From sequence record NC_048170.1: a stretch of 64,000 nucleotides of DNA; one strand, given 5' to 3'. Origin of the DNA: Escherichia phage vB_EcoM_Goslar. The stretch's first letter is position 1. Each line of letters begins with the position of its first letter. The position numbers were made by a program, and so were the translations under genes. The notes under the pieces are model-generated. The model was not told the DNA's origin and searched no databases. It worked only from the letters and a program-made list of their open reading frames with translations. Positions 1,792-55,509 of this stretch are shown here, piece by piece.

Positions 1792-2625
1792 TCAGCGGAA
1801 CATGTCCAACAGAAAACGTTTTGCAAAGGGGTCGCGTAACTGGTTGACACCGAAGCGTGTACGGTCTTCCGTTGTTAATGGATTCCACTGACTCTGTTTC
1901 GCAAGATCTAACAGCATCCTTTTTATTTTCACCGGCCCACTGTTAAACTGTACGGCTTGGTCACCGAACGTTCCCAAGGTCATCTTTGTAAATGGAAGAT
2001 TCGCAACCTCTGGACGATCCCCACCAGTAAGTTTAGTCGACCACTGATGTTTTCGTTTCAAGGTTCCGGTATGGCTCTCTACCAAAATAAGTTCACCAAA
2101 ACCGGTTCTTGCCAACAAGTCAGAAACATAGTGCGTGGTGATATACGATGTCTTGGTTATCGCGGGTAATTTACAATCCATCGATTCGATATTAGGGAGT
2201 CGATCTACAGACGCCATCAACCCACGATAAAGTGTAGCGAGTCCTTTTTGTTTTTCGGTGTGTGGCTCCTTATGTATAGCGTGCGGATAAACACGCTTTA
2301 TTGACGCATAGGTTGGCGCATATATCCGCAAGCGAATGTGGGGAACGAGTTCATTCACCAACTGTCTTAGCTGCAGTAACTCGTTTTGAAAATCCCCTGT
2401 TATCATCGATAACGGTAATTTATGTTGTTCAACGTCTTCAAAGCTTTCAACGAAATTGCGTGCTAAAGTACGCAGGTTGAACAACCAATCCATCGGTGTT
2501 TCTGGCTGTTGCTGTACTGCTGATAATGTTGCTGACGTCCCTACCGATAAAGGATAATCACCTAACGTGCGGGCGTACATATCGCTCATACCCCACAACT
2601 CCTTCTTATCATGGCAACGTATCAA
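1792..2625 (-). CDS. hypothetical protein
   Basis: 277-aa ORF in the minus-strand gene array, short overlap with the downstream gene. Confidence 0.6.
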   Translation of the reverse strand: MIRCHDKKELWGMSDMYARTLGDYPLSVGTSATLSAVQQQPETPMDWLFNLRTLARNFVESFEDVEQHKLPLSMITGDFQNELLQLRQLVNELVPHIRLRIYAPTYASIKRVYPHAIHKEPHTEKQKGLATLYRGLMASVDRLPNIESMDCKLPAITKTSYITTHYVSDLLARTGFGELILVESHTGTLKRKHQWSTKLTGGDRPEVANLPFTKMTLGTFGDQAVQFNSGPVKIKRMLLDLAKQSQWNPLTTEDRTRFGVNQLRDPFAKRFLLDMFR

Positions 2626-3751
2626 GCCAAGCAGAAACCTTTAAGGCATCAACGTTCGGGTATTTATTACGAATGCGTTCGACCAACAAACGCTTAACGT
2701 TGTCCTTTGTCAAGTCTCCACCTTTCTCGATAACGTTATTGACAAAACTGTTCTTTAATAGCGACTGGTTGTTCTTGGCATCCGTTTTAATTGACCAGAC
2801 AAAACCTGGATACAAAGAAGGAATAGAACGAAACGTTTTCGCCGCATCGTCTTCCTTATCGCAGCGTATTCGAATATGATCGCCCTTCTTCAGTGGAGCC
2901 AATTCCCGTTCCAACACACGGACAATTTCATCTCCAACAAGACCATGCAGTTTTATCGTCTTATAGACATCTGCTTTCTTGTTCTCAACAAATTCCCACT
3001 GGTCGTTAAACGATTCTGTTAACGTATAACGGAGATACCCCTTTGGACCTTCTTCGCCGTGCGCCAAGCGACCAAACGAACCGCCAACCATGATACGTCC
3101 TTTCTGGGATTGTAAGTGGATGTGCCCGCTCACAATCCATCCCTGGGTCTTCTCTACCATTGCGTTATACGCATCACTGCTATGAACACATGTTGCTTTT
3201 AACGCTTCTGGTGGAAGCTGATATTCGAACGCGCCATGCATCAGAATAAAGTCTGGCGATCCCTTCTCATCAATAAGTCGGTTCACGGCCGACAACGTCA
3301 CATCCGGATCGTGGCTGTAGTTATCTGGAAGATAAAGCACTTTTAAACCAAAGTCTTCATCAACCATGCAGAGGTCATCGTAATAACGAACTTTCGCTCC
3401 TATCTCCATGACCTCGTTCTGTTCAACGAACCACTGACTTTGCTTCTGGTCGTGTAAATTGGTACCCTCAAGAAAGATCAACGTAATATCGTGTTTTCTC
3501 GCATACCGTAACAACCAGGTACCCCAGGCACGAACAGCAACCACATCACTCGTCACAAATGTCGTAATACGATCGAAGACATCGCCACTGAACGTAATCA
3601 CATCAAGCAGCGCAGGATCTTCTTTTGTAATGTAATAACGCAGTTGGCTAATCAGGTTTACTGTCGGTGTTTGACGATGGATAAAGTGAATATCCGACAA
3701 ATTGATTCCACGTAATACCCCAGGCGTTTTATTTCGACTGAAGTCTCGCAT
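2609..3751 (-). CDS. calcineurin-like metallophosphoesterase, SbcD/Mre11 (T4 gp47-like) nuclease family
   Basis: Ordered phosphoesterase motifs in the translation: INLSDIHF (D-x-H), FSGDVFD (GD), EGTNLHD (GNH-D-like), LMHGAF (H), VSGHIHL (GH-x-H). Confidence 0.6.
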   Translation of the reverse strand: MRDFSRNKTPGVLRGINLSDIHFIHRQTPTVNLISQLRYYITKEDPALLDVITFSGDVFDRITTFVTSDVVAVRAWGTWLLRYARKHDITLIFLEGTNLHDQKQSQWFVEQNEVMEIGAKVRYYDDLCMVDEDFGLKVLYLPDNYSHDPDVTLSAVNRLIDEKGSPDFILMHGAFEYQLPPEALKATCVHSSDAYNAMVEKTQGWIVSGHIHLQSQKGRIMVGGSFGRLAHGEEGPKGYLRYTLTESFNDQWEFVENKKADVYKTIKLHGLVGDEIVRVLERELAPLKKGDHIRIRCDKEDDAAKTFRSIPSLYPGFVWSIKTDAKNNQSLLKNSFVNNVIEKGGDLTKDNVKRLLVERIRNKYPNVDALKVSAWLDTLP

Positions 3752-8214: not shown

Positions 8215-9654
8215 CTTACGTGCACCGACGTTTATTAACTCATGGTTATCCACTGAAATACGGCGTTAGGGAAATAATCCTTCTTGCCGCGTTTTGAGAT
8301 TTGCAATGCCATATTACTCGGAGACAATCTGTAATGCCATGCTGCTTCATCGATAGAACTAAACTTCTTTGTTTCACCGTTATCAAAGATGATTTTCAAC
8401 GCCAGTTTAGGTAAATCGTCTTCCGTTTCTACTAATTCGAAAGAATCGATATTCTCTGCCAGCGTCAACGGATCAACTGGTAATATCAGCCAACCAGCAC
8501 GCTGCAATCCTCCACGTAGACTAATTTGTTTATTCAACGCAGGGGTAGCCATGCCAACTAACTTAGCAGCCAGCTTGCGGTCTTTAATATAAAGACGATA
8601 ATCTCCGGTATTATTAATAGCATACACACCAAAGTTATTGAACGATACCTTTCCAGCATCGGAACTAGTAAAGCCTACAAAGTCGTGGCTGTCGGTAGCC
8701 ACGTCGTATTTAAATGCTAATGGCTTGTTTCGACTGCCGCTAAGATACTTCTTGGCTGTAGATACCGATATGTTGAGATATCGTCCAATAGCATTCAAAC
8801 TTTCTAGTTCGATGATTTCTCCTGTCAATATGTCCTTTAACCGAACATTACCCATCGGTATTGGTGGTTTACCGACATAACCCAATTCACGATATGCGTG
8901 TTTCAAGTTATCTGAATCAGTAGCCCATTCCAAATTTTCTAGTCTGTTATCCCAACGCACCCCATTAAGATGATTAGGGACACGACGGATTATACCTGAC
9001 GTCGGATCTGGGTTAAATGTTTCAAGGACAATCTGATGATGGTATTTCACTTTATTGTTCCTAGTGAAAGCGCGATAGTTGTTTTTGCCCGACTTGGGTG
9101 GTTCAGTACGAAACAACACTGTCAGACTAGACACATCTACTATCGTACCGTTCTTATTAACAACGATACCATCAAAACCATTAACAGGACGATAATCAGA
9201 CAAACAATCTTCAGAAATTGCCTGTCCAACTAAAGGTTCACTCAATTTGACCTCCTTTATAAAAGAAGTCGGTGCACGTAATTATCGACTATATCTTCAT
9301 CCTCGTTGCGAGGAGTCTCCCGTTTTGGTCTGTGTTTAACAGAGCCTACTCTACTCGACATCGCGTCTTTCGATAGTCTGTGAGCACACATCTTAACGAA
9401 CATTCGTGGATTCCTAAACAGGTGAACGTTCTTGTTGAGATGCTTCGCTGCGGATTATTCCCGTCCTACCTCTTTTACCCTACCCAGTTCATTACGCTGG
9501 CCCTCATCTGTGTCACCACGATGAGTTGGTGTGTAGTCCGATTACAGAAACTTCCCGTCAATTAGAGAGTTTTAACTACGTTCCTGTTACCAGAAACCCG
9601 ACTCCGACGATATCAATAAATCAACGTAAGTTATTGATTTAATTGAAGAAACTG
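8215..9654 (-). mobile_element. group I intron 1 (about 1440 nt) in the nvRNAP beta' gene, carrying an HNH homing endonuclease ORF
   Basis: Minus-strand elements: IGS GAGUCGG (plus 9598..9604) pairs with exon end CCGACUU (U-G wobble at the splice site); P AAUUGACGGGAA (9552..9563); Q AAUCCGCAGC (9447..9456); R GUGCUCACAGACUAUCG (9371..9387); S AAGAUAUAGUCG (9286..9297). The HNH ORF sits in the loop of a perfect 10-bp stem (9268..9277 / 8220..8229); the intron ends GUAAG at 8215. Confidence 0.6.
8235..9245 (-). CDS. HNH homing endonuclease (intron-encoded)
   Basis: 336-aa ORF with HNH motif RRVPNHLNGVRWDNRLENLEWATDSDN and a helix-turn-helix-like DNA-binding segment (SLNAIGRYLNISVSTAKKYL). TTG start 4-5 nt after AAGGAGGU. 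Confidence 0.8.
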   Translation of the reverse strand: MSEPLVGQAISEDCLSDYRPVNGFDGIVVNKNGTIVDVSSLTVLFRTEPPKSGKNNYRAFTRNNKVKYHHQIVLETFNPDPTSGIIRRVPNHLNGVRWDNRLENLEWATDSDNLKHAYRELGYVGKPPIPMGNVRLKDILTGEIIELESLNAIGRYLNISVSTAKKYLSGSRNKPLAFKYDVATDSHDFVGFTSSDAGKVSFNNFGVYAINNTGDYRLYIKDRKLAAKLVGMATPALNKQISLRGGLQRAGWLILPVDPLTLAENIDSFELVETEDDLPKLALKIIFDNGETKKFSSIDEAAWHYRLSPSNMALQISKRGKKDYFPNAVFQWITMS

Positions 9655-10910
9655 AAGTCGGCATTATAACCTTTGAGGATCATCACGCTTAACCCGATGG
9701 TGTTATCCTGCGGATCGCGTTTAACCTTGGTGATTTCAAGACATTGGTTACTGCTTCGGTCAAGTGATGGGTTTCGAACAAAGCCACACACAATCCCATC
9801 GAACGGTGTATCAGCAATAAGCTCATCGTGCAGCTCGCTCATCATCGGATGATAATTACGGACATGTTCCGCAACGAACGCACGTGCTGCTCTCGGTGAA
9901 TAACCACGATGGAATAACTTGGATTGGATATGTTCTTTATTGGTTAAAGTAAATGGTGCGTATGGGAAATGCAGATGATAATAACGATGGTTCGCTGTTA
10001 TCGAACTGATTACAGTACGCGTGGTGAATGGATGTAATGTACCTAATATGTTTTTACGTGTAATACCTTTCTTCTTACCGATGAACTCATCGAAAATCGC
10101 CGCGTGGTATTGCAGCAGCTTCAATTGCACTTTCGCCATCCAGTTTTCTTTCTTTCTGGCGCTCAAAGGTGTTGTTGGATGATAGATACTATTCAACGTA
10201 CCGATAGCATCGATCGCACCTTCCATTTTGCTATCTGCATAACGACCGGTCGGCGTATTTTCGATAACGAACATCATGGCCGCAGGAAAGCTGATATACT
10301 GACTGAAGAACTTATCACGATGGATTCGGATGAATTCTCGTAGCGTGTCAACTTTCTCCGTGTTCTTCGGTCCACGTAACGTAGGTCCTTTATACAAGAT
10401 CTCCATGATGCGATCGAAGTTCTGTATAAAGCTATTTACGCCACGACGTATCCCGAATACATCGAATTGCTGCTCCAGATAGTTCTTGAGTTCGATGGGT
10501 CGTTTTACATTTGGACGGTAACTGGCATCAATGAGCCACGTCATCGTTTCAAAGCTTTTGATATTCAACTCGCTTGCCAGCACGAGATGGACCAACGGGT
10601 TAATGAACGCATCGATTCCTTCAGGAACACGCGCCCAAACCGTCGAACGAATCTCTTGTTCTGCTGGGTAGGTTACAACCGTTTTACAGTTTGGACACAC
10701 CGTGCCGAGTAGCTCACCACGATTGTAGAAACCACAACCACATTGTGGTGTGATATCCAACGTATCGCTGGAATAAACACGGGTGATAAAACTGTTTAAT
10801 TTCTTCTTCTCTTCGACGACTTTTGTATCGTAATCGTTCAACAAAATCGGCGTAAAAGGAAGTTCTGCGAGCTGTCTATCGAAACTCACGATATCGAGCA
10901 TGATGGCCAT
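9655..10910 (-). CDS. non-virion-type RNAP beta' N-terminal subunit, exon 1 (phiKZ gp55-like by position)
   Basis: Zn-binding CGCGFYNRGELLGTVCPNCK, beta' motif FIGKKKGITRKNILGTLHPFTTRTVISSI (cf. [23 protein letters not shown]), and the genomic ORF stops inside the catalytic motif (...ILKGYNADF-SFFN*). AGGAGA RBS before ATG at 10910. ORF track reports 9639..10910. Confidence 0.8.
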
Positions 10911-11002: not shown

Positions 11003-12898
11003 TTAGAACAGGTTGAATGCCCCACCCATGTTGTTAACGCCAACATTCGGACGATCGCTACGTGCGTAGATGTTACCGGAGATGTTACCCAGACCACGAG
11101 CACGTGCTGCCATGTTACCACGAACAGCGGTACCTGCCAGATGCTGGATGTTCTCAGGACGGATGGTGAAGCCAGCATCAGCAGCGGCTTCGATCAGCGC
11201 CTGCAGTGCTAACGGATCGAAGTCGTAACGCATTGCCCAGCCGGTTTGTTCCCAGCTACCAGACAGAACACGATCGATGATTTCGTGACGAGCGACAACA
11301 CGCTGAGACATCGTCATATCGGTACGGTCGAAGCTGTCTTCCCAAGCTTCTACGGTATCCGGGTTAGTGATGTTCATCATGTACAGATCGTCCATATCAC
11401 GAATATCGTGACGGTGACCATCCTGGTGGTTGTAGTGACCCAGCGGGATACGGTTACCGGTAGCGTAGACCAGCGGTAAGCCGTATTGATATTTCTTGCT
11501 GAAGCAACCCAGGGTAACATCATCGAACGCACGGTAAAGCGCTTTGTAACCTTCGGAGATTTCACGGACTTCACCTTCAACTTTGCCCGTATAGATCTTC
11601 TCAGCCGCCGGGATCATACGCAGCAGCCAGCTGTACTCACCTTCTTCCGGTACGTCGATAGAAATCAGCAGAGACGGATACAGTACCTGTTGCAGGAACT
11701 TGTAAATCTGCTCGTTGGTTTGAGTGGACAGATCCAGCGGTGCGGTAACTTCCGGATCCAGTACCATCGCCAGAGCACCCGGGTTATGCGGACCAATACC
11801 ACGGGCAGCGTTGCTGATTAAAGACTGTGCCCACGCCATACCGCTGTTCAGCGTAGCGATGGTGCCAATCAGCCCCAACACGAAAGTGTTCGGCGTGAAC
11901 GCATCCAGCTCCAGCGGGTAAGCGCTGGTCATCACGTAACGCGGCTGGTATTGTACAGTCGGCGGTACCGGATAACCGTTAACCAGAACAGGGCCTTGGT
12001 TGAAGGTCGGGTTCTGCGGGCTGTAGGTCAGGTCGATGTAACCGGTGGTGGCGACCAGACGCTGTTGACTATCGTAATCGCTCATCGCTTGACGGATACG
12101 GTTAGAGATAGTTACAGTGATGTCAGAACGCACAGGGTTACCAACAATATCGCTGTCCTGCATACCGCTGGTGTTATACTGAACGCTGCTGATTGGCTGA
12201 TCGCTTGCCATCATGCCCAGGTTGAACTGCGGCAGACCCAGTTTATCACCGAGACGGATTTCGATCGCGGTTTGGATTGCGTTATCTGCAGCAGACAGCA
12301 GGGTGGTTGCCAGATGCGCAGATTCAGCGGTGATTTCATTGGTCACCACAGCCAGACCAGCGATACGAGCAGTACCATTAGACTTACCGCCAATAGCTGC
12401 ATACATTGCCGCCATGACTTCGTTGATGAACGTACCGTTCAGGTTATCAACCCAGGTACGCGGTACCAGAATGTTACCATGCGGACCTTGTTCTTCACGA
12501 CGCGGCAGCGGAGCCAAACCGGCAACCAGCGGAAGCACATAACCAAAGAAGTGGTTATGGTCACCAACTTTTGCACCACTCATAACGACCAGGGTCGGAT
12601 ACGGTACGCTGTACTGGTTCGGGTCAACCGCAACAAAGATGAAGTCGTCTTTGAACCGGGTATCTTCCAGATATTTCTCCATCAGACGACGGAGATTCAG
12701 TACCTGCTCGGAGCCAGTATTACGGCTAATACGACGGCTCAGTGTACGGTTGATCGTACGCATCGTATGAGTTACTTTAGGCTGGCCAGCAAAATCTGCA
12801 GCGGTTTCCAGCGCCTCATCAGCACGTTGTGCGGTGCGGGTTTCAGCTGCACGAATTTCTACATTATCGTTACCGTTATTACGTACGTCTAAGCCCAT
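11003..12898 (-). CDS. probable phage-nucleus shell protein (chimallin/ChmA-like); highly expressed structural-type gene
   Basis: 631-aa ORF immediately upstream of, and co-oriented with, the nvRNAP beta' gene, as phiKZ gp54 is to gp55; strong terminator after it. Identity is inferred from size and synteny, not from motifs. Confidence 0.45.
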   Translation of the reverse strand: MGLDVRNNGNDNVEIRAAETRTAQRADEALETAADFAGQPKVTHTMRTINRTLSRRISRNTGSEQVLNLRRLMEKYLEDTRFKDDFIFVAVDPNQYSVPYPTLVVMSGAKVGDHNHFFGYVLPLVAGLAPLPRREEQGPHGNILVPRTWVDNLNGTFINEVMAAMYAAIGGKSNGTARIAGLAVVTNEITAESAHLATTLLSAADNAIQTAIEIRLGDKLGLPQFNLGMMASDQPISSVQYNTSGMQDSDIVGNPVRSDITVTISNRIRQAMSDYDSQQRLVATTGYIDLTYSPQNPTFNQGPVLVNGYPVPPTVQYQPRYVMTSAYPLELDAFTPNTFVLGLIGTIATLNSGMAWAQSLISNAARGIGPHNPGALAMVLDPEVTAPLDLSTQTNEQIYKFLQQVLYPSLLISIDVPEEGEYSWLLRMIPAAEKIYTGKVEGEVREISEGYKALYRAFDDVTLGCFSKKYQYGLPLVYATGNRIPLGHYNHQDGHRHDIRDMDDLYMMNITNPDTVEAWEDSFDRTDMTMSQRVVARHEIIDRVLSGSWEQTGWAMRYDFDPLALQALIEAAADAGFTIRPENIQHLAGTAVRGNMAARARGLGNISGNIYARSDRPNVGVNNMGGAFNLF

Positions 12899-13152: not shown

Positions 13153-14247
13153 ATGTTTCGTGTTTTAAATAACCTCCCGCGAACATCATCGGGTGTGCAA
13201 CCCGTCCCTCAGAAAGACTATCTAATACGCGAAGTTCAAAGAAACCTACAGACAATCCAGAACCACTATCAAGGTTTTACCTTCGCGGTTCAGAGCGATC
13301 ACATCCTTGCGTTGCTGCTCGCACAGCTCCCTATGAGATACGACATCTCAGTACAAACTTACTACGACATGATTCTCGATCTTACCCCAGAATTGGGTAA
13401 TCGTGTCAAGTTGACAACATCAAGATACGCGGGTAAGTTATTCGACGGTGCTTTCTATCCGGGACTGCACGAAGCTATTATCGCAACCGGTGAAAGTCGT
13501 CTTATTTCACGTGATGTTCTTGACAACTGGCGTAATTGGTCACCAGTTAGAATCGTGACGCACCCATACGCAAATCTTCGTTACATTCCTCTTCACCAAA
13601 AGCAGGTTGAAGAAGGACGAGGTTTTGCGGTCATTATGGTTGATGTGCCTTTGTTAGCGCTACAGTATCGAATGTGGTCTTTGGTCATGGGTCATAACGT
13701 CGACGGTAAATGGGTGGTTAAAGAACCGGTTACAAGCTTCCTTGCGAGTTTTCCGTTGGTTAACGCATTATACTCACACAACGATGTTGTTATACGCAAT
13801 CGTTGTTTGTGGGTATCACCGGCTAAGAATCCACTCAAATCACCAATTTACGTTAACGACCTTGATAACGTATTCAGCCAAGTCGTTCTGTCCGTACAGC
13901 ATCATTTATTACGAAGAAGACGAAGCTACACCGATATGCTTAAACAGATACCGAGTTTATACGGGGATCAGTACCAAGCAACCCGAATGGGTTACACCGT
14001 CGATCTTCGACAAACACGATGGGCAAGGGATCTGGGTTGTCTGTCATTATGGCAACAACTCGTCACATTGCAAAACGTATCTGAAAGCGTCGGGTTCAGC
14101 AGTCAAATCGATAACGACCTGTACCGTGCTGCTGACCGTAGTCTAAAAGAAGGTAACTGGGAGTCCTCTCCGTTACCTGGCGATTTAAGACGTGAAGTTA
14201 TCGCACAGGTTGCCGACCTCTTAAAAATTCTTCCCGCCGGTGCATAA
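13153..14247 (+). CDS. hypothetical protein
   Basis: 364-aa plus-strand ORF, divergent from the 631-aa gene and convergent with the 717-aa gene. Confidence 0.6.
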   Translation: MFRVLNNLPRTSSGVQPVPQKDYLIREVQRNLQTIQNHYQGFTFAVQSDHILALLLAQLPMRYDISVQTYYDMILDLTPELGNRVKLTTSRYAGKLFDGAFYPGLHEAIIATGESRLISRDVLDNWRNWSPVRIVTHPYANLRYIPLHQKQVEEGRGFAVIMVDVPLLALQYRMWSLVMGHNVDGKWVVKEPVTSFLASFPLVNALYSHNDVVIRNRCLWVSPAKNPLKSPIYVNDLDNVFSQVVLSVQHHLLRRRRSYTDMLKQIPSLYGDQYQATRMGYTVDLRQTRWARDLGCLSLWQQLVTLQNVSESVGFSSQIDNDLYRAADRSLKEGNWESSPLPGDLRREVIAQVADLLKILPAGA

Positions 14248-14313: not shown

Positions 14314-16467
14314 TTATTCTGCGGTTTCTTGCTTCGGTAAATAACTTGCTGCAATGTCTTGGGCTAACAATGTATTGTTTTTATTCGAGATGAAAATACC
14401 GTAACTTTCCATTAACGCGTAATACGAACGAACGAGCGTAGAGATCAATCGACGAATATCCATACCTTGAATAAAGATATCAGGAAGCCCGGAGGCTTCG
14501 ATCACCGGTAATGGTATCGTTAAGTTGCTTATCGTTTTCTTATCGTTACGTACAATCCAATCACGGAAACGTTGTTGTAACCCTTTATCCTCCCAGGAAT
14601 CAATCCAATCGTTAAGAAGCGTTTTGTTCTTCGTCGCCAACGGCACACGAACCCCAACATAGGGCGGTTCCTGGCAATGGCCGTACGATTGAGCAAACAC
14701 CTCTTCCCACATATCGTAAGACTGTTTCGTTACCGCAACATGTGGCTTCACTTTAACACGTGTTAAGAAATCGGGATCACCTCGTTTCATGGACTCAACG
14801 ATTTCGTTTTCTAACGAGATAATATCATCAAGAACCAATCGAATGCTGATCTTCTCGTTACGTAACAGCTTATCCATGATACCACACATCATGCGTTCAA
14901 CACGTTTGACGATCATTTTTGGTGCTGACGCGTCACGCATAACCGGACCTTTCAATTCCAGCTTCGGTGGGTTGATAGGAACCCCCTCACGCATGGTCAT
15001 GTAACCGTAATAGTTTTTACCCATCGAGGTTAACGACAGAATCAAGAACATATATTCGTTCTTCATTTCCATCACGTACATATGCTCTTTCGCTACACCG
15101 ATATTACCAGAACACATCGCCATCAGATGAACCGTAATCTGCGTAACCAGATAGATAAGCGTATTTGCTAAGCGCGTCGAAACTGGATTGATCTCCATAT
15201 TTCCAAATCGCCACTGCACCCACTCCTGGCAGGTAAACACCGTCGAGTCGGTATCAGACAACACACCCACTTCACGGATTGCTGATGGGAAAGCATAAAC
15301 GCCAGCCGGTTGGTTCTCGGTACGCCAGAATGCCATAATCAAATCTGCGTAGCTTTGAATACGCTGTAGCATTAATTTTGTCGTCGCCGCAGTAAGACGA
15401 TAACCAAGTTCATTTCCTTTTTCTAGCGCTACGTAAATCGCTTCCCCGTTCAAGAACTCCGTGCATTGTGCTGTAATCCAAGCGACCGTGTTGTTATCCA
15501 TGGAAGCAATAATGGCTTTAGCCTCTTCCATCGTTTCAACAGGTTCGGATGCCAGCTCACATAACGAGTCAAGAAAATCTCGAACAAATTCAGGATTAAG
15601 CTCACGTAACGAGTACAGGTTATTGCTGTACATGTAGCAGGCACGTTCCAACGGTGTTAAACCGGTAATTAACTCCCGGATAGTCAGTTCTTTCTCTGGG
15701 TCGAAAGTATATCGATGCAAGCATTTCGATACGTTAGCCCAAACCTCTTCCGGCGTAGGGTAATGTAGTTTGTATTTTACCATTACCTGCTCAATGGCTT
15801 TGCGATCGCTGTTACGAACAATACTTACGATGTTTTCAATTGCGATATCACAATCGTAATAATGGAAATTGCCCGCAAGGAAGCGTTCGTTGTTCGCATT
15901 GGCTGAACCTGAAGCACAGCGACATGTTGTCGTTAAACTTGGATGCGCGATCGGATTATAAAAAGGGTTAAACTTGGACGCCTGGGTTCCTGACAAACTG
16001 TTGTTGTCTAACTTGGTGTTGGTTTGTCGTTTATCGTGTAACTCAGCTTCGTCTTTACGTCCGTGTGCTTGCGCTATCGACATTTGTTTCTTTTGTTTCT
16101 TACGCAACTTACCGTTTTCAACCGCGAAGTCGCTTAGCACACTGGAACGTGTTTCACGTGGATAACAGTTAGCCCATACCGGCGTGATAATTAAATTATT
16201 TTCTTTAATATCATTGAAGTATTGGCTGAACTTGATGACTTCTTTTTCACGATTTCCTTCGGTACGCTGTGTTAATACAAGACAGTCGGGATCAACCATC
16301 CCGTATTTTCCACCGGGACGAACCGTATCAAGGACAAACTGCAACGCTTCCTGCTGTGATATCCCACGCATGCGCATTAAGAACAGGGTATAATCCTGTA
16401 CCGCTTCTTTGGTCATATCCAACGTACGACCATATCCGTTTTCATCGTAAAAGAACGGATTTTCCAT
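14314..16467 (-). CDS. hypothetical protein with weak polymerase/nucleotidyltransferase-like motifs
   Basis: 717-aa ORF with GGAGGA RBS. Contains KLDNNSLSG (KxxxNSx[Y/S]G-like), MYSNNLYSL and VLSDTDS (cf. pol B YGDTDS), but the motif order is not canonical. Confidence 0.6.
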   Translation of the reverse strand: MENPFFYDENGYGRTLDMTKEAVQDYTLFLMRMRGISQQEALQFVLDTVRPGGKYGMVDPDCLVLTQRTEGNREKEVIKFSQYFNDIKENNLIITPVWANCYPRETRSSVLSDFAVENGKLRKKQKKQMSIAQAHGRKDEAELHDKRQTNTKLDNNSLSGTQASKFNPFYNPIAHPSLTTTCRCASGSANANNERFLAGNFHYYDCDIAIENIVSIVRNSDRKAIEQVMVKYKLHYPTPEEVWANVSKCLHRYTFDPEKELTIRELITGLTPLERACYMYSNNLYSLRELNPEFVRDFLDSLCELASEPVETMEEAKAIIASMDNNTVAWITAQCTEFLNGEAIYVALEKGNELGYRLTAATTKLMLQRIQSYADLIMAFWRTENQPAGVYAFPSAIREVGVLSDTDSTVFTCQEWVQWRFGNMEINPVSTRLANTLIYLVTQITVHLMAMCSGNIGVAKEHMYVMEMKNEYMFLILSLTSMGKNYYGYMTMREGVPINPPKLELKGPVMRDASAPKMIVKRVERMMCGIMDKLLRNEKISIRLVLDDIISLENEIVESMKRGDPDFLTRVKVKPHVAVTKQSYDMWEEVFAQSYGHCQEPPYVGVRVPLATKNKTLLNDWIDSWEDKGLQQRFRDWIVRNDKKTISNLTIPLPVIEASGLPDIFIQGMDIRRLISTLVRSYYALMESYGIFISNKNNTLLAQDIAASYLPKQETAE

Positions 16468-16765
16468 AAATCCTCCAAAAGTTATTTAGTCTGTCTACAT
16501 CATCTCGTATATCTGTTAAAAAAGAAGGACGGCATAAAAAAGAACCGATCCAGCCGAAGCCAGATCGGTTAAAAAGGATAATAACTGACAGAAAGATATC
16601 GATGATGTTCGTGAAACAAGATCTTCTCTCGTGTACAATGATGCTAGATCAGAGGGAGGTTGTAACACGAGAGGTGGTTCGCCAAAGAAGGAATAAAAAC
16701 ACGAACCTATCTTATTTCACTGATGGCACTAACCACTCAAAATATATAGTACTGTATGTAAAAGT

Positions 16766-17179
16766 TTACTGATTAATCAAGTCGTTAGCAACAATCTTGG
16801 TGTAACCTGCCTGATTAAGAATCTGATTAATTTTCGTTACGTCGGTCGCATCCTCAATAACGATGCTGGGTTTATAGATCAGCGTCTTGGTAACGACGAT
16901 TGTACTCTCCTTAATCCAAGGAATCCCTAGAATCACATACTCGCCATCGGCTGTAATGACCTCGACGTAATTGTATTTCGTCGGATCGTTCGGTACACTA
17001 GACGGGAGCCGGGAATAAATCTGTTGGTGAATGGCGTCTACATCACGGCCGTTGCGCACAGCCGTACGATAGTTGTACACGGCGCTAATTTCTACTCCGT
17101 TGAAGTTAACCCCAAGTTCTGGGGCGTATACATCAAAACTCACAACAGAGCCAATCTTTTCTAAATCAGAAGCTGGCAT
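16766..17179 (-). CDS. hypothetical protein
   Basis: 137-aa ORF. Confidence 0.55.
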   Translation of the reverse strand: MPASDLEKIGSVVSFDVYAPELGVNFNGVEISAVYNYRTAVRNGRDVDAIHQQIYSRLPSSVPNDPTKYNYVEVITADGEYVILGIPWIKESTIVVTKTLIYKPSIVIEDATDVTKINQILNQAGYTKIVANDLINQ

Positions 17180-17190
17180 AATAGCATCCT

Positions 17191-17712
17191 TTATTTAAAA
17201 ATGTATTCGTATCCGAAGGTCGTCGCCGACCAGACCCGGATAGATGATAGTGTTCCGCCACGATAAAACGTTTTTGTGAATTCCATATCCTGGGCAACAC
17301 GATAATAAACACGTCCGATAATACGCACGATAAGGTTTCGTGATAACGATCTCTCCTCGCAGTATTCATCGATAAAGTCATCGTCGATATCCGATAAGAC
17401 AACATCCGCAATTTCTTGCAGTAGGTTCCTCATCAGCATCTGCCTTCCTTCGGTACCCCACCCAGACAAACAGTAATCGTCTTCTGCCTGACTATAGATG
17501 TCGTTAACCGCCTGTTCGAGCAGTTGCTCAAGATAGTAGTCATCGCGTTTTATAACGTGGCGACGGCGCTCAGTGGCGTATTTTTCCATCCTGTGTTTCT
17601 CTTGTTCGGCGTATGTATTAACGACGCCACAGTCTTTTCTGGATCGTCCCACAATGCACGACGAAAACTGGATACTACCATAACGGTAGGATAGATTTGT
17701 ACAACCTCCCAT
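17191..17712 (-). CDS. hypothetical protein (true start probably internal, near 17589)
   Basis: 173-aa ORF; its N-terminal 40 codons overlap the upstream gene and look non-protein-like; MEKYATERRRHV is a plausible start. Confidence 0.4.
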   Translation of the reverse strand: MGGCTNLSYRYGSIQFSSCIVGRSRKDCGVVNTYAEQEKHRMEKYATERRRHVIKRDDYYLEQLLEQAVNDIYSQAEDDYCLSGWGTEGRQMLMRNLLQEIADVVLSDIDDDFIDEYCEERSLSRNLIVRIIGRVYYRVAQDMEFTKTFYRGGTLSSIRVWSATTFGYEYIFK

Positions 17713-18038
17713 CCGTAACGATGTGCGTTAGTCGTACGTCCGACATTGAACAGACATAGCTGATTTAAGAAACAGAGCTGCATCTTCGTAAACAACACCA
17801 TGTCTTCACGTTTAACGTATCCGAGGATATACGCATTCTCGAACGCCTCGCGTGACAAGACGGGACGATTAAGATACCGCAACGACAGTACCAACAACGT
17901 TGTTATGCGCAACGGATCTTCTGGGTCATTCATGGTGCTCAGCTCTGCTTGTAACCAGTCAGGGATAGTAACCGTCAGACGATAGGTATCTGTTCCACGA
18001 TCAACCACATTCAATGTTGAAAAAGGCAACATATCCAT
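17550..18038 (-). CDS. hypothetical protein
   Basis: 162-aa ORF; C-terminal overlap with the next ORF. Confidence 0.45.
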   Translation of the reverse strand: MDMLPFSTLNVVDRGTDTYRLTVTIPDWLQAELSTMNDPEDPLRITTLLVLSLRYLNRPVLSREAFENAYILGYVKREDMVLFTKMQLCFLNQLCLFNVGRTTNAHRYGWEVVQIYPTVMVVSSFRRALWDDPEKTVASLIHTPNKRNTGWKNTPLSAVATL

Positions 18039-18495
18039 GAATTCCTTCTAGCTCGAGGTTGTTCTCGCCGGTCTTCGGTAATAACCCACTGGCCGTTAAC
18101 ATCTGCGTCATCGAGTAGTCAAAGCACGGAAATATCAGGTTAACGGTTTCCTGGATCGCGTCAACATAACTATAAATGGCTTCATAATACTCACCGTCAT
18201 GATCTACGCTAACCAGTTCCTGACACAGTTCTTCGCTTATCATTTCATATACCGGTGGATACCACGATTGAAATGGTCGCTGCATACGTAACGACCAATA
18301 CTCGTACGTCGTATACTGAAGCACGTCATAAGCCGATACGTTAATGCGGTCGAAGAAAGCATACTTGTCCATATGCTGATACAACATCGCCAGCACGGTT
18401 TCCAAGCACACCGATATCCGCACGCCGTCATCTTTCCCGTTAAGAAAATTAGGTTTCTGCCGATAACGCACAAATGCCGACGGCTTTGATTGCAT
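18001..18495 (-). CDS. hypothetical protein (start trimmed to ATG overlapping upstream stop)
   Basis: ORF track 18001..18576; the internal ATG at 18495 (MQSKPSAF...) overlaps the stop codon of the upstream gene. Confidence 0.5.
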   Translation of the reverse strand: MQSKPSAFVRYRQKPNFLNGKDDGVRISVCLETVLAMLYQHMDKYAFFDRINVSAYDVLQYTTYEYWSLRMQRPFQSWYPPVYEMISEELCQELVSVDHDGEYYEAIYSYVDAIQETVNLIFPCFDYSMTQMLTASGLLPKTGENNLELEGIHGYVAFFNIECG

Positions 18496-19046
18496 TATTC
18501 CACCACCAACCATAACGTCATACTCGTATCTAACGTAAAATTGAAATGCCACCAATCTTCTACACGTGGAATCCACGTACGAAGGATTTGGTTAACTTCG
18601 CTTCGCATCACCGATAAACGACAACGAAAATCGAACTTCTCATCATGACCGTAGTCTTCATGCATGAAAACTTCATCCAAAACGAACTCAAGTTGCATGT
18701 CGACATCACGGCCAGAGATATTCCGTTTGTACAAATACAACTCAATCGTGTCGTAAAGCAACGTATGAATATCATAATTTCCGTTCGGTGAGAAATAAGG
18801 TAATCGCTCATCGAGCATCGAAAACAGATATTCACTGTAGTTTAATAACGGGATGATGTACCGACGCCCTGTCTGTGGTGTGCGAATATGTATCGAAACC
18901 TGACTTGGGCGCGGAATAACCGACGGCTTAGAATCGTCTCTCTGAAATTGCTCTAAAGATCGCAACAAAGGTGGCCGCATTGTAACTCTCCAACGCCCAA
19001 TTGTAAGGCCCTTCCAACATGTGTTCCCATACGTGAATAAACTCAC
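18495..19046 (-). CDS. hypothetical protein (start uncertain)
   Basis: 183-aa ORF; N-terminus overlaps the upstream ORF by 118 nt, so the real start is probably internal (e.g. MRPPLL at 18980). Confidence 0.45.
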   Translation of the reverse strand: MSLFTYGNTCWKGLTIGRWRVTMRPPLLRSLEQFQRDDSKPSVIPRPSQVSIHIRTPQTGRRYIIPLLNYSEYLFSMLDERLPYFSPNGNYDIHTLLYDTIELYLYKRNISGRDVDMQLEFVLDEVFMHEDYGHDEKFDFRCRLSVMRSEVNQILRTWIPRVEDWWHFNFTLDTSMTLWLVVE

Positions 19047-19557
19047 TACCGAAGACAGGCTCTAGTGCCATAGTGAGATTCGTAAGTTCTGACGCGGCCG
19101 CATGGTAAGCATCAACATGTCTTTCCATTGACGGATCGTCTTCATTGAAAATACGTTCTGTATCGCCAGCGCGCTCAATAAGTTCGGTAATGAGATCTGT
19201 CCATGTCTCGTGACACGTCATCATTTCCTGTTCTCGACTTAGTATGCCGATGTCTGCGTGGACGCTGGACTCGAACCGGTCTAAAAGGACCCGAAGAACG
19301 TGCACCTTGTCGATGTATTTCACCGTTATCCAGGAAAGCGGTTGCCACCGACTCAGCATCCATCCGGTACTCGGGAACCCCAAACTCATATAGTACGGGT
19401 TGCACCGGACCGAAGACGGAGCGACGTTGTTTAAATCGCTCCTTAAGGGCAAGGCCTTGTTTAATATAAACGGGTTCATTGGCGAGCTGTTCCGCTTTTC
19501 GTTTTGCGTGAGCCAATCGAAGTTCTTCCAATTGCCCAAGCCATTCAAATTGTTCAT
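18928..19557 (-). CDS. hypothetical protein, 3' part of a possible frameshifted gene
   Basis: Protein-like from about WITVKYIDKVHVLRVLLDRF (near 19332) onward; the N-terminal 76 codons look like out-of-frame translation. Confidence 0.45.
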   Translation of the reverse strand: MNNLNGLGNWKNFDWLTQNEKRNSSPMNPFILNKALPLRSDLNNVAPSSVRCNPYYMSLGFPSTGWMLSRWQPLSWITVKYIDKVHVLRVLLDRFESSVHADIGILSREQEMMTCHETWTDLITELIERAGDTERIFNEDDPSMERHVDAYHAAASELTNLTMALEPVFGSEFIHVWEHMLEGPYNWALESYNAATFVAIFRAISERRF

Positions 19558-20152
19558 CTGTTAGCTCCTGGGGACGTTCAACAATCGCGCCAGATGGGCA
19601 GACATTGATCGTGATGTTAATTGACGGCATCGCCATCACTCGAGGATTACTATTACGTACGCGGACAACGTGTTCGGTTGCTGATTTACGATCGACGCAA
19701 TACTCTGTTTCTTGGAACTCAAATGCTTTTAACGGTGTTGGTTTTGTTTGACGTTTAGGAACGCGGCCAAGATCGACAATATAGGCATAATCGCACACAC
19801 GTTCTATTCCGTAAATACGGTTATCCGACCAGTTCTTACCAAACAGCTTGTTGTGATGATAAGACAAATATTCGGTTACCATACCCTGGACAACATCGAA
19901 GTCTTCTCGAAATTCAGGTTGGTACCAAATCGGGCCGAGAATATCTGCGAACGATTCATGACGATATCGAGGATCATGTCGAGTCCAGGTCATTCTCTGA
20001 TTAAGATCGAAATCCACCAACAACTCGGTTAATTGCAATTTTTCCTTCGGAGAAAGCTGGCGTTGATGATGCAAACTCAGGCAATCGATAAGCGGTAATG
20101 AAACCCACGATGCTAATGTGTACAAATCGATCCTGGCTAATCTCTTGGTCAT
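19175..20152 (-). CDS. hypothetical protein, 5' part of a possible frameshifted gene
   Basis: 325-aa ORF; protein-like to about ...VATAFLDNGE, then an Arg-rich tail (RPVRVQRPRRHRHTKSR) typical of out-of-frame reading. Confidence 0.5.
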   Translation of the reverse strand: MTKRLARIDLYTLASWVSLPLIDCLSLHHQRQLSPKEKLQLTELLVDFDLNQRMTWTRHDPRYRHESFADILGPIWYQPEFREDFDVVQGMVTEYLSYHHNKLFGKNWSDNRIYGIERVCDYAYIVDLGRVPKRQTKPTPLKAFEFQETEYCVDRKSATEHVVRVRNSNPRVMAMPSINITINVCPSGAIVERPQELTDEQFEWLGQLEELRLAHAKRKAEQLANEPVYIKQGLALKERFKQRRSVFGPVQPVLYEFGVPEYRMDAESVATAFLDNGEIHRQGARSSGPFRPVRVQRPRRHRHTKSRTGNDDVSRDMDRSHYRTY

Positions 20153-20855: not shown

Positions 20856-21836
20856 TTAGAAAAGCAAGAAACCGCTATTCTTCGCTTCCGCTACAGTTTC
20901 GTCACCAACTTTCGGTGCTTGTTGACGTGCGTTACGATGTTCGATGTAACGTTTCGCTTCGTCAGCGATTTGTTTGATAATACCCCCTAAACGATCGGTA
21001 CTTAAAACAAACGACGTCGCTTCACGAATCGGGCTGCTTTCAGGCACAAAACCATCACAGCTATAAATAGCGCTAACACCCATGACTTTTGTCGCGTCTT
21101 TCGGATAAAGCGTACAGAAAGCAATCGGGCTATCGTTCTCTTTCGTCCATTCGTATCCCATGAACGTATTCAGTTCGGTGATCGTCGGTTCCAAACCGGT
21201 AACACGTGGATGGTTTAAGAAGTTTTCCAGGTCGGCGCTGTCAAGACGACGGTTCTCGCCAGAAAACAGAACACAAAGCTGGCTAATAACAACCTGCACG
21301 TCCAGGTTGACATCCTGCTCCGATTTCCCATTTTCGCCATTCATGTGATAGCTAACAATCACTGGACGTTTCAACCCTTCTGCAGCCGCCATCAGTCCTT
21401 TGAAGGTGCGATCGGCGTTGATCGTCTGGCGCTCATCATCGAACGAGGCAACGATACAACACACCACACGTTCACCGCGTTCCAGCAGGTTAGCAACCAA
21501 CGCAGGACCGGCAACAGAACCTGAACCACCGCTCAAACTAAAGACCACGATATTAAATTTACCTGGCGTATGCTTATTGAGAATACCTGGGATTTGTGAA
21601 CAGATCAGTTCAGCGTTCTCATCACGCTTCTTACCAGAACCGTCTAACTCACGACCAGCTGCATCTTTAAAGATGTAAATATGATCGTCGCCCAGTGTGC
21701 TATCGCGTAGGTTAGCGCGGCTGGTATCAACATACGTCATGCTGTGTAATCCTTTCGCGACTTCGCCTTCAAATGCTGAGCCGATTTCGCCACCACAACC
21801 ACCGACAGCCCAAATATGTACTTGGTTCTCTTGCAT
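20856..21836 (-). CDS. phuZ: PhuZ-like phage tubulin (FtsZ/tubulin superfamily)
   Basis: 326-aa ORF with nucleotide-binding loop VGGCGGEIGSAF and tubulin signature FSLSGGSGSVAG (GGGTGSG-type), plus a C-terminal tail; size matches PhuZ (about 315 aa). Confidence 0.7.
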   Translation of the reverse strand: MQENQVHIWAVGGCGGEIGSAFEGEVAKGLHSMTYVDTSRANLRDSTLGDDHIYIFKDAAGRELDGSGKKRDENAELICSQIPGILNKHTPGKFNIVVFSLSGGSGSVAGPALVANLLERGERVVCCIVASFDDERQTINADRTFKGLMAAAEGLKRPVIVSYHMNGENGKSEQDVNLDVQVVISQLCVLFSGENRRLDSADLENFLNHPRVTGLEPTITELNTFMGYEWTKENDSPIAFCTLYPKDATKVMGVSAIYSCDGFVPESSPIREATSFVLSTDRLGGIIKQIADEAKRYIEHRNARQQAPKVGDETVAEAKNSGFLLF

Positions 21837-47223: not shown

Positions 47224-50200
47224 TTATTTGGCGTCGTTAAAATAAATATCAACAGCTCGTTCCGTTGCGTAGAGGAGACCAAGATTCACAGTCCCAACCA
47301 CTTCCGGTGAACCGATGATACGGTTAGCGATACTGGTGCCACTGAAGATAGCATCAAGGGTGTGCCCGTCTTCGGTTTTGTTCACACCATGACCCACGGA
47401 AGAGACAACGGATTTCGCTTGTGCTGCGAAGGTACCTTTATCACCCATCCCCGCACCAAGGTCGTAACGCATGAAAATACGGATGGCGATCTGGTTCTCG
47501 CCTAACGGATTACCGTCTATTCTTACGTTACTGTTGTTGATACGCCCCGTTGTTGCTTCGTTGAGTTTCAGTTCCTTAACGCGTTTAGCTCGTGCTTTAT
47601 CCGCATCGCCGACGAGCGCTGCCATGGTTTCACTCATATCCTCAATCTGAGCGCGGTACAATACATCGATCTGTACAACTTCACCATGAACGTCAGCACG
47701 TGGGTTATACTGACTCATACGCCGTAATGCTTCAACGGCTTCCTGACTCTCATCACTCAGATCGGTCGCAATCGGTTCTTCCAGTGTTGCAAGGATCGTT
47801 CGTGGTTCAACATGATCGCCGATTTTCACGAGACCACGAATGTTGAGATGGGCGTCAACGATGAGTGTACGACTCTTAATCGATGGTGTTACGAGACGAT
47901 CGGCAAGATTGTCGAAGATATACGAACTGTCCTCGTGCGTCTCTGGAATATCCAGAATACCGACAAGAGACAGAACACCTGCGCGCCAAACAACCTGACC
48001 TGGGTTCCACCAATCGCGTTTAAAATAAAGACGATGGAAAACCACCACATCCTGATCCTTAACGCGATCCCCGACTTTATAATCGGTAATGAGATCGTGA
48101 GGATAATACTTACCTGGTCCTTTCCCGATTATCGTGCCGAGTTGGAAAACCTCTTCTCCTAACTCTGGATCGTCGTATTGTATCGTAAGCGCAGTTTTGG
48201 TGACCTTCTTAACAACACCATCGCCTTGGGCAGCTGCTGCGAAGAGTTTACCAACACGATGCGCGATGACTGTCTCGCCACCCGTACGCCATGGTTGTAC
48301 ATCGTAACCTTCAGCAGCAATCATGCGGTTGTGTTGGATTCCGACAAAAACCAGACGTTTTCCATCGTCACGGTCTACAGCCGGAACAGCTAACGCCGAC
48401 GTACTCATTACCGATGAGATACCATCTGTCTTTTCATCGAATGGTCGTGTTTCACCATACACCGACACGATATTAGCATTAGGTGCAAGGTAAGCAGAGA
48501 TACCCACATCCCCACTATCTTTCGTACCCTCTGACACAATACCAACATCAGACTTGTCGTATTCACGATCGCGTGCGCGTCGAAGCGATGTCTTTGAACG
48601 ACCTCCGATACCGGTCATCGTTGCTTCTTCACCTTGCTTGATATCCAGCATTGGGTTGGTTTCATCAATGACGATAGAAGCACTGTCGTCAAGGATTTGG
48701 TTCCAAACGCTCACCGGACTGATTGAGATCTTCTGTCGGTTGCCTTGGCTGCTGTTCTCATTCTGACGAATAGCGCCAACCAGGTCCTTATACACCAATT
48801 CAGCGAACTTATCGTACGTTTTAAAACGTTGGTAGTTCACATCGTTCGTGTTAGGTGCCCAATCATCCAGAAGCAGTTCAACAGCACGCAGTAGCAACAT
48901 GGCGAAATCAGTAGGTTCTCCCATGTTCTGTAATAGCGTACGGCTTACCGGATCAACGAAAAGACGCTCCATGAGTTCAAGTTCGCGTAAATGGCGAACC
49001 TTAAGTCCAGCACCATCGACAACGTTAAAATAGATATCACGATTGTCAAAAGCGCCGCGAGCGTAACCGATGTAGTTACGGTACTCGTTAAACCCACCCA
49101 GCAACAACGTCGTCATGCGATCGTCTTTACTGAAAATCAAACTTTCATCGTCAAAGCTCACCGCGAATTCATCTGCTGCTAACCCCATACGAGAACCACG
49201 AGGTACCGTACGATAGTTTGCTTTAAGATGTTCTAATAACGGGGTAAGTCCGCCCAGATAACTTAGAACAACGCCAACCGGAATACGTACACCCATGAAT
49301 TCAAGATCGGCGGCTTCGATCGGCATCTTAGCCGCATTGATACCGAAGAAATCAGGGAACGTCCCTACAGGTGTTGGTGTTTGTCCTGACTGACAGATAT
49401 AGAGCTGATTGCGTTCATCGATCGCTAGGAACTCACCCGATGTGTTACGTGCGAACGTCAGGAGTCCTTCGGCTAACTGTTCGTTGAACCGATCTTCCCC
49501 AATGAACTCCGGCAATGTTTTTATATCGAGACGTATATCCCAATCAGCAAATTGGATTTGGGTATAGTTGCGTGCAAGCACAGCGAAGTAATACGGGACT
49601 TTGACAGCCGGATCAAAGACGTTACCACGTTTTAACGTTGTTAAGGGTGAGGACTTATCGTAATACATCGCCGTAAGTTGACGTGTTAGCCAACGACCGG
49701 CGTTATTAACGACGCGCTCTGAACGTTTAACAAACACCTTACCGTAGGCGGTACTTAATGCAACTTCGGATGATGATACCTTTCTAATAGGTTTATCAAC
49801 ACGTTGTTTACGCATCCGGTACTTGATGCCGTTAACAACATAAATGCCATCCTTACGAACCTTCGGCAACATCACCGGGAACGTGGTTGGGACACCGCCT
49901 ACAGGGGCCAGTTTAATCGTGATGACTTGATAATCCCCCATCACGTCAACAACATCTTCGACTTTATATCCCGTAACAGGGTAACCTGCTTGCTGTACCG
50001 CAACAACGGCAGCTGCGATGTCCTTTTGCATTACATGCTCAACGTAATGTTTATCCCACACCGCAAGCGTCGATTTACATAGGCTCTTATCGACGATAAC
50101 ATCCGCTTCCGGCATAACCTTTGCGGGAGCTAATTTTGCGGCTTTTGGTTTAACTTCAACATACTCGGCAAGCGTGAGTCCAGAACCGTCGGGCGCTTCG

Positions 50201-55264: not shown

Positions 55265-55509
55265 GGAGACACTCCTCTTTACCACCACCGGCTGCGGCGG
55301 TATCATCTGAACACACGAGAGACGTAATGGGTGATGGCGTCACCCATCGCTTCCTTGCTTGAGGCGAGGAAGTTATTAGGTTACGTACCTGCGTGATAAA
55401 ATCAAGCAGGCGATGTGTGAAGTTACGCTTCAACATTATCAATGCCGAAGGTAAACTTCGTGCATCACGTTCCAACGTAACATGGGAACGTATCGAACTG
55501 GAGGTATAC

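Follow-up and report, generated by a model that had tools for sequence, protein, structure and literature searches.

The 717-residue polymerase-like protein of Escherichia phage vB_EcoM_Goslar is a phiKZ-like divergent family B DNA polymerase with its motifs in canonical order

The open reading frame (ORF) at positions 14314-16467 (minus strand) of a 64,000-nucleotide stretch of the Escherichia phage vB_EcoM_Goslar genome (NC_048170.1; the whole stretch is referred to below as the window) encodes a 717-residue protein that is a regular, full-length representative of a family known before, the divergent family B DNA polymerases (divDNApol) of phiKZ-like phages, and an ortholog of phiKZ gp50. 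We consider it very likely, with a probability of about 0.9, that the protein is the catalytic subunit of the replicative polymerase of the phage, from the exonuclease-less divergent family B clade (PF20286) of the phiKZ-like nucleus-forming jumbo phages (Chimalliviridae). An initial annotation of the window gave the coordinates and length of the ORF exactly and quoted three peptides that are all present in the translation: KLDNNSLSG (residues 152-160), MYSNNLYSL (279-287) and VLSDTDS (402-408). They were taken as resembling motifs B, A and C, respectively, outside their canonical order, and the protein was proposed to be a highly divergent or permuted nucleotidyltransferase, a candidate for the missing replicative enzyme of phiKZ-like phages, or a case of chance resemblance.

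The assignment of the gene draws on the ORF itself, on PF20286, PHROG 2927 and tblastn matches, and on annotated orthologs. The protein matched PF20286 ('Divergent Family B DNA polymerase') with an E-value of 2.4e-204 and 681 bits (cut-off, 25.7 bits), residues 9-705 aligning with profile positions 3-704/705, and PHROG 2927 ('DNA polymerase') with an E-value of 2.5e-206; PHROG 262, also a DNA polymerase family, gave a weaker match over residues 104-210. A tblastn search with the 717-residue protein returned 304 phage records, every one below 60% identity and many of them annotated as 'DNA polymerase'. The best relatives, with 34-36% identity over 97-98% of the length, are found in the Pseudomonas phages Viktualia and 201phi2-1, the Erwinia RAY/Ea35-70 group and Salmonella phage SA002. 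The ortholog in 201phi2-1 is gp83, annotated as 'similar to phiKZ gp50 and EL gp21', and that in Erwinia phage RAY is gp220. All of the 112 homologs from a word-index search carry PF20286 and many carry PF00136 as well, and when 1.84 billion cluster representatives were searched exhaustively with a profile, 971 matched at E≤1e-30, nearly all of them 700-780 residues long. The identical 717-residue sequence occurs in assemblies of Salmonella enterica and E. coli O157 isolates and in metagenomes, and RefSeq already lists the identical protein as 'family B DNA polymerase' (WP_197904427.1). Neither the window nor the gene had a megablast match in INPHARED phages (Aug 2025), PLSDB plasmids or complete E. 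coli genomes; among the INPHARED phages, none has a polymerase more than 36% identical to this one. The source of the DNA is a jumbo phage of about 238 kb that encodes chimallin, and it looks like an enterobacterial chimallivirus lineage, possibly carried in cultures.

Membership in PF20286 bears out the suggestion of a highly divergent polymerase and of a phiKZ-like replicative enzyme. The idea that such an enzyme is missing from phiKZ-like phages is out of date: the divDNApol family was described by Iyer et al. in 2021 (PMC7824862) and has its own Pfam entry in PF20286, and fusions of RAY gp220 and phiKZ gp50 are found together with phage DNA, in or at the phage nucleus (PMC10299810; 10.1101/2024.03.24.586471).

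We used a family alignment of 252 sequences, mostly less than 50% identical, to find the columns under the strongest constraint; all column counts given below refer to it. The residues R122, K126, K152, N156, G160, R398, D405, T406, D407, S408, K469, E471, K484, Y486, E494, K506 and G507 are invariant in 252 of the 252 sequences. Canonical family B polymerases have KxxxNSxYG as motif B, DxxSLYPS as motif A and YGDTDS as motif C. In the Goslar protein, KLDNNSLSG (15988-16014, minus strand; K152, N156, S157 and G160) is a true motif B, situated at the end of the finger helix 138-162 and aligned to K560-G568 of RB69. Likewise, VLSDTDS contains a true motif C (SDTDS), in which S404-D405-T406-D407-S408 sit at the turn of a hairpin with strands 401-404 and 409-411 (15235-15267, minus strand) placed by invariance, hhalign and the AlphaFold2 model. 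Among 5000 shuffled versions of the 717-residue protein, a fraction of 0.0016 contained the motif B pattern K...NS.[YSF]G and 0.008 contained DTD[SG]. Both motifs are thus far beyond the chance resemblance that had been offered as one explanation, and K152, N156 and G160 as well as the whole of DTDS belong to the invariant columns.

These elements could be placed along the sequence of the RB69 polymerase (gp43). In a comparison of the family profile with PDB sequences, RB69 residues 437-570, including QINRKLLINSLYGA (motif B), aligned to residues ~78-162, and RB69 residues 705-758 (KKRYALNV...KLKIMGLETQKSSTP) aligned to residues 484-537 with an E-value of 9e-7; the same profile pairing covers the RB69 KKRY-MGLETQKSSTP stretch. 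With hhalign against an RB69-like gp43, SDTDS was paired with GDTDS (620-624; D621/D623), MKNE with MDRE (683-686; E686) and KHY with KRY (KKRY 705-708). Whole-length hhalign comparisons with the RB69-like sequence or alignment recovered solely this block from motif C to KxY, and comparisons of N-terminal sub-alignments paired R122, K126 and K152 with R481, K485 and K560 of the RB69-like gp43; the finger residues R122 and K126 are the counterparts of RB69 R482 and K486. Ten out of ten homologs tested passed the gathering score of PF00136, on the stretch of the fingers and motif B (PF00136 positions 97-201). The order along the chain is finger Arg/Lys, motif B, a palm helix (T179, R183, E194), motif C, MKNE, KxY, which the AlphaFold2 model puts on the sheet after the motif C hairpin, and finally the thumb. 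This is the canonical order of family B, and nothing in it is permuted. The reported scrambling is therefore not borne out, motifs B (152-160) and C (405-408) and KxY (484-486) being collinear with RB69 gp43, and the out-of-order impression arises solely because MYSNNLYSL was counted as motif A.

The AlphaFold2 model, computed from a 60-sequence alignment, has a mean predicted local distance difference test score (pLDDT) of 91.0 and a predicted template modelling score of 0.87, and it predicts the palm-fingers-thumb fold of family B for this protein. In a Foldseek search of the model against the PDB, all top 50 matches were the RB69 or T4 polymerase. Against BFVD, two family members came first, with template modelling (TM) scores of 0.91-0.94, followed by the Bacillus phage AR9 DNA polymerase (TM 0.70-0.77) and then by canonical viral family B polymerases. 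The initial annotation had proposed this very check and had named a non-polymerase fold as the outcome that would speak against it; because the Foldseek matches are family B polymerases, the predicted fold speaks for a polymerase. The chain begins in the palm and has no PF03104 match, whereas an RB69-like control has one, in keeping with a protein that lacks a 3'-5' exonuclease domain. In the model, the N-terminal palm segment (residues 1-109; 16141-16467, minus strand) consists of two helices, a β-hairpin 61-69/72-79 with a G71-N72-R73 turn, a helix 80-90 and an (S/T)P strand 95-96, and its hidden Markov model alignment to RB69 437-465 starts from residue ~78. A canonical motif A would be expected in this segment, but none can be recognised there. 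The fingers (15982-16140, minus strand) are formed by two long helices, 110-134 and 138-162, which carry R122, K126 and motif B according to the model and the alignments. The C-terminal palm (14938-15234, minus strand), delimited by the profile comparison with PDB sequences, hhalign and invariance, contains M468-K469-N470-E471, K484-N-Y486 (15010-15018), E494-G495 and K506-G507. The predicted secondary structure places the thumb at about residues 511-717 (14317-14937, minus strand), with a boundary derived from an RB69 alignment that reaches residue ~549.

The odd spacing of the motifs has a simple origin. Motifs B and C lie about 245 residues apart, versus about 60 in RB69, and this long spacing is explained by a known multi-helical insert, which Iyer et al. 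presented as the hallmark of the clade; the same authors described its DXD motif, noted that no 3'-5' exonuclease is fused to the polymerase and reported an SH3-fold gene upstream (PMC7824862). In the Goslar protein, the family-specific insert occupies residues ~199-397 (15277-15873, minus strand), after the palm helix and before the motif C hairpin, and is modelled as some fifteen helices spanning residues 206-395 with pLDDT values mostly above 90. The supposed motif A, MYSNNLYSL (279-287; 15607-15633, minus strand), lies inside this insert and is the local form of an insert motif, Y280-x-G-D283-L-Y-H-L...N291, with Asn at position 283. The consensus Y-T-G-D-L-Y-H-L...N is strongly conserved (Y280 in 232, D283 in 241 and N291 in 249 of the 252 sequences); position 283 is Asn in ten sequences, including the Goslar protein, and Ser in one.

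One might read this conservation, together with the lack of a conventional motif A Asp upstream of motif B, as the sign of a circularly permuted or scrambled nucleotidyltransferase in which motif A had moved between motifs B and C to supply the first catalytic carboxylate. We regard such a permutation as extremely improbable. The form with N283 is found in a cluster of 328 member sequences from many independent assemblies, so that the Asp is dispensable and D283 cannot be an essential metal ligand. The AlphaFold2 model shows a helix-loop-helix at MYSNNLYSL (helices 272-280 and 284-290), not a strand-helix, and no β-strand ending in an Asp precedes it. The spacing D-L-Y also differs from D-x-x-S-L-Y, and all other elements are collinear with RB69 gp43. 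What MYSNNLYSL has in common with DxxSLYPS is LY[PS] alone, which turned up in 0.24 of the shuffles; a relaxed motif A pattern, with the Asp/Asn and Ser positions included, does not occur in the 717-residue protein. MYSNNLYSL was rejected as motif A on the grounds of its spacing, its predicted structure, its Asn and the chance frequency of LY[PS].

The interpretation of the Goslar protein as the catalytic subunit of a replicative polymerase has to be weighed against several observations. The query sequence alone had no PF00136 match at E≤1 and no phmmer match among PDB sequences, and because these single-sequence searches gave nothing, the link to canonical family B polymerases needs profiles or structure. 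At positions 72 and 283, where most relatives have Asp, this protein has Asn (N72 and N283). No canonical motif A (DxxSLYPS) could be recognised in it, and the 252 family sequences have no invariant acidic column on the N-terminal side of motif B. Finally, no biochemical assay of any divDNApol member turned up in the literature searched, so that polymerase activity is inferred.

Judged from the alignment, the lack of a recognisable motif A carboxylate is a property of the whole divDNApol family and not of this ORF. The best candidates on the N-terminal side of motif B are positions 59 and 72. Position 59 is Asp in 163, Glu in 8 and Asn in 44 of the 252 sequences (68% Asp/Glu), and position 72, in the G-[DN]-R hairpin turn, is Asp in 166 and Asn in 73 (67% Asp/Glu, 29% Asn), the Goslar protein having Asn; an acid is absent at both positions in 20 sequences. 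By the order of secondary-structure elements in the model, position 79, which ends strand 72-79 ahead of helix 80-90, is a plausible equivalent of the canonical Asp; it is mostly Thr, Pro or Ser. We attempted to place motif A by the spacing in PF00136, by secondary-structure order relative to an AlphaFold2 model of the RB69-like gp43 and by conservation. These approaches led to conflicting candidates (~50-59, 66-72 and 79), none of them universally acidic, and no placement was accepted. An hhalign pairing of residues 24-40 with the SLYPS helix had no posterior confidence and was not used. All six frames of the 64-kb window were searched with profiles of a T4-type exonuclease and of motif A and with the regular expression D..[ST][LMIV][YF]P. 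Nothing was found, so there is no sign of a separate gene for either a motif A or an exonuclease in the window.

The universally acidic columns of the family are E194, D405, D407, E471 and E494. They correspond to E603, D621, D623, E686 and E716, which are invariant in T4-like polymerases; the pairing of E194 with E603 was made by helix position only, 15 residues after T179/T587, a pair that was itself matched by motif and helix position, and neither pair lies in an alignment. The counterpart of RB69 D684 is an invariant Lys, K469. It is conceivable, albeit doubtful, that the divDNApol family has no conserved motif A carboxylate: the other universally conserved palm acids of family B are retained, whereas RB69 D411 has no counterpart. 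If no other residue takes the spatial position of D411, the catalytic metals would be bound by a re-wired set of ligands, for which both Asp residues of DTD plus E471, or the Asp/Asn at position 72 or 59, are candidates. We met no discussion of this possibility in the papers that we read.

A family without a conserved motif A Asp, represented in this phage by a protein with N72 and N283, could also consist of catalytically dead polymerase homologs that have a structural or scaffolding role, with replication left to another enzyme; phiKZ has been reported to have a second 'DNA polymerase', gp82 (10.1101/2024.03.24.586471). The conservation pattern makes this very unlikely. Invariance of the active-site columns from R122 to G507 in 252 such dissimilar sequences is the hallmark of an active site under selection, and the family is part of the Chimalliviridae core genome (PMC10299810).

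If the protein is, as we think, the replicative polymerase, the established roles of the aligned RB69 residues suggest how it would work. By the position of their RB69 gp43 counterparts, R122, K126, K152 and N156 would bind the incoming deoxynucleoside triphosphate, D405-T-D407 of motif C would form the metal-binding catalytic centre for two-metal nucleotidyl transfer, and K484-x-Y486 (KxY) would bind the primer terminus. Catalysis would occur inside the phage nucleus. Proofreading would be supplied in trans by a separately encoded exonuclease, and the product of the upstream SH3-fold gene, together with the helical insert, might substitute for a sliding clamp in an accessory or processivity role; trans proofreading and these processivity roles are hypotheses from the literature (PMC7824862).

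Iyer et al. further speculated that the polymerase might also prime, in a 'primpol'-like manner, since group 1 phages have no DnaG and archaeo-eukaryotic (AEP) primases (PMC7824862), and we found no primase-family match among the window ORFs scanned. However, the window represents about a quarter of the ~238-kb genome, and the phage multisubunit RNA polymerase (RNAP) is an equally good candidate for priming (PMC7824862). One family member is moreover fused to a 5'-3' exonuclease/RNase H domain, which fits the removal of RNA primers made by something else. Priming by the polymerase thus seems unlikely to us. The fusion protein, a metagenomic sequence of 967 residues (P0313), has an N-terminal 5'-3' exonuclease/T4 RNase H-like domain (PF02739, E-value 2.5e-16; PF09293) ahead of divDNApol, a Pol I-like arrangement, and another member (P0382) has a C-terminal DUF4326; the two fusions are either real or artefacts of gene calling.

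Among known systems, the closest are phiKZ gp50, 201phi2-1 gp83 and RAY gp220, with which the Goslar protein shares full-length collinear identity of 34-36%, the invariant motifs, the helical insert and the lack of an exonuclease domain. The upstream SH3-fold gene and the position next to chimallin are also common to Goslar, phiKZ, 201phi2-1 and RAY. The Goslar protein differs by N72 (GNR instead of GDR, as in 73 of the 252 sequences) and by N283 (as in 10 of the 252). With RB69 and T4 gp43, it shares motif B, motif C, an MDRE-like strand, the KKRY motif and the finger Arg/Lys in the same order. Unlike these polymerases, the Goslar protein has no N-terminal domain and no 3'-5' exonuclease, carries an insert of ~200 residues before motif C, has a much shorter finger loop, and contains neither DxxSLYPS nor any residue corresponding to the invariant D410/D411; in place of RB69 D684 it has the invariant K469. 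The poxvirus DNA polymerases (vaccinia E9 and mpox F8) are also among the closest known systems. Outside the close family, the Bacillus phage AR9 DNA polymerase is the next-nearest predicted viral structure (Foldseek E-value 5e-26, TM 0.70-0.77). This TM-score suggests a shared exonuclease-less architecture, a comparison of models in which the AR9 protein carries no domain assignment; the AR9 polymerase is only 17% identical and, at 641 residues, shorter.

The polymerase gene starts at ATG 16467 and ends with TAA at 14314-14316. The start is supported because homologs align from residue 2-5 onward, and a Shine-Dalgarno sequence, GGAGGA (16471-16476, minus strand), can be read 3 nucleotides upstream of the ATG. 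Directly upstream of the polymerase lies a gene for a 137-residue protein (16766-17179, minus strand) that matches PF20287, 'SH3 fold domain associated with phage DNA polymerases' (SH3DP), with an E-value of 1.3e-36. SH3DP is 36-40% identical to RAY gp219 and 201phi2-1 gp81, and it is a possible accessory subunit of the polymerase. The arrangement of SH3DP and polymerase also occurs on other contigs, and an SH3-fold gene is a conserved neighbour of divDNApol (Iyer et al., PMC7824862). The spacer between the two genes (16468-16765, minus strand) has 298 non-coding nucleotides, the same spacing as on four other contigs. A strong terminator-like hairpin with a 12-bp stem, a 4-nucleotide loop and a T-run (16543-16570, minus strand) was found in it by pattern match only, preceded by ~195 nucleotides of untranslated sequence. 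An Rfam osmY match to the spacer was rejected, as it scored 18 bits versus a gathering score of 47.

On the other side of the polymerase, a 364-residue ORF (13153-14247), homologous to RAY gp221, lies on the opposite strand, followed by the gene for chimallin (11003-12898; PF25677) and a piece of the RNAP β subunit (9639-10910). The order SH3DP, polymerase, 364-residue ORF (opposite strand), chimallin and RNAP β matches RAY gp219-222 and also the published description of phiKZ, in which the DNA polymerase and an RNAP β-subunit gene lie on either side of the chimallin locus (gp54) (10.1101/2024.03.27.586873). The PhuZ tubulin gene is at 20856-21836, and large RNAP subunit genes, tail sheath, terminase and head protease genes are encoded further along the window. 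This neighbourhood is the typical context of a chimallivirus. ORF scans and the T4-type profile detected no 3'-5' exonuclease in the window, which is consistent with an exonuclease encoded elsewhere, as described by Iyer et al. (PMC7824862). The sole other nuclease of DNA metabolism detected in the window is an SbcD-like nuclease subunit (2609-3751, minus strand; PHROG 100, E-value 1.8e-40), which is not a DnaQ-type proofreading exonuclease.

Other features of the window were recorded alongside. Short, partly overlapping ORFs fill the region upstream of SH3DP (17191-20152, minus strand), at 17191-17712, 17550-18038, 18001-18576, 18928-19557 and 19175-20152. None of them had a PHROG match, the four that were scanned had no Pfam match, and gene calls on related contigs differ slightly in this region. 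ORFs resembling HNH/NUMOD homing endonucleases (8235-9245 and 52238-53710, both minus strand) are located beside or between the split RNAP genes (9639-10910; 47224-51570 and 53756-55306). In a 2260-residue ORF (55393-62175, plus strand), a tail-fibre-family region (PHROG 3201) is joined to a C-terminal endolysin/chitinase-like domain at residues ~1875-2100, and the product is probably a virion-associated peptidoglycan hydrolase.

The supposedly missing phiKZ replicase has been known for years and is covered by a Pfam family, and RefSeq already names this exact protein correctly; as first proposed, the finding matters little. Two small points may interest specialists: a family whose motif A carboxylate cannot be located from sequence, and of which, as far as the literature searches show, no member has been characterised biochemically; and a chimallivirus of Salmonella/E. 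coli of about 238 kb whose polymerase is only about 35% identical to that of any INPHARED phage. The main use of our analysis is as a correction: the motifs of this polymerase are not permuted, and their odd spacing is the known helical insert.

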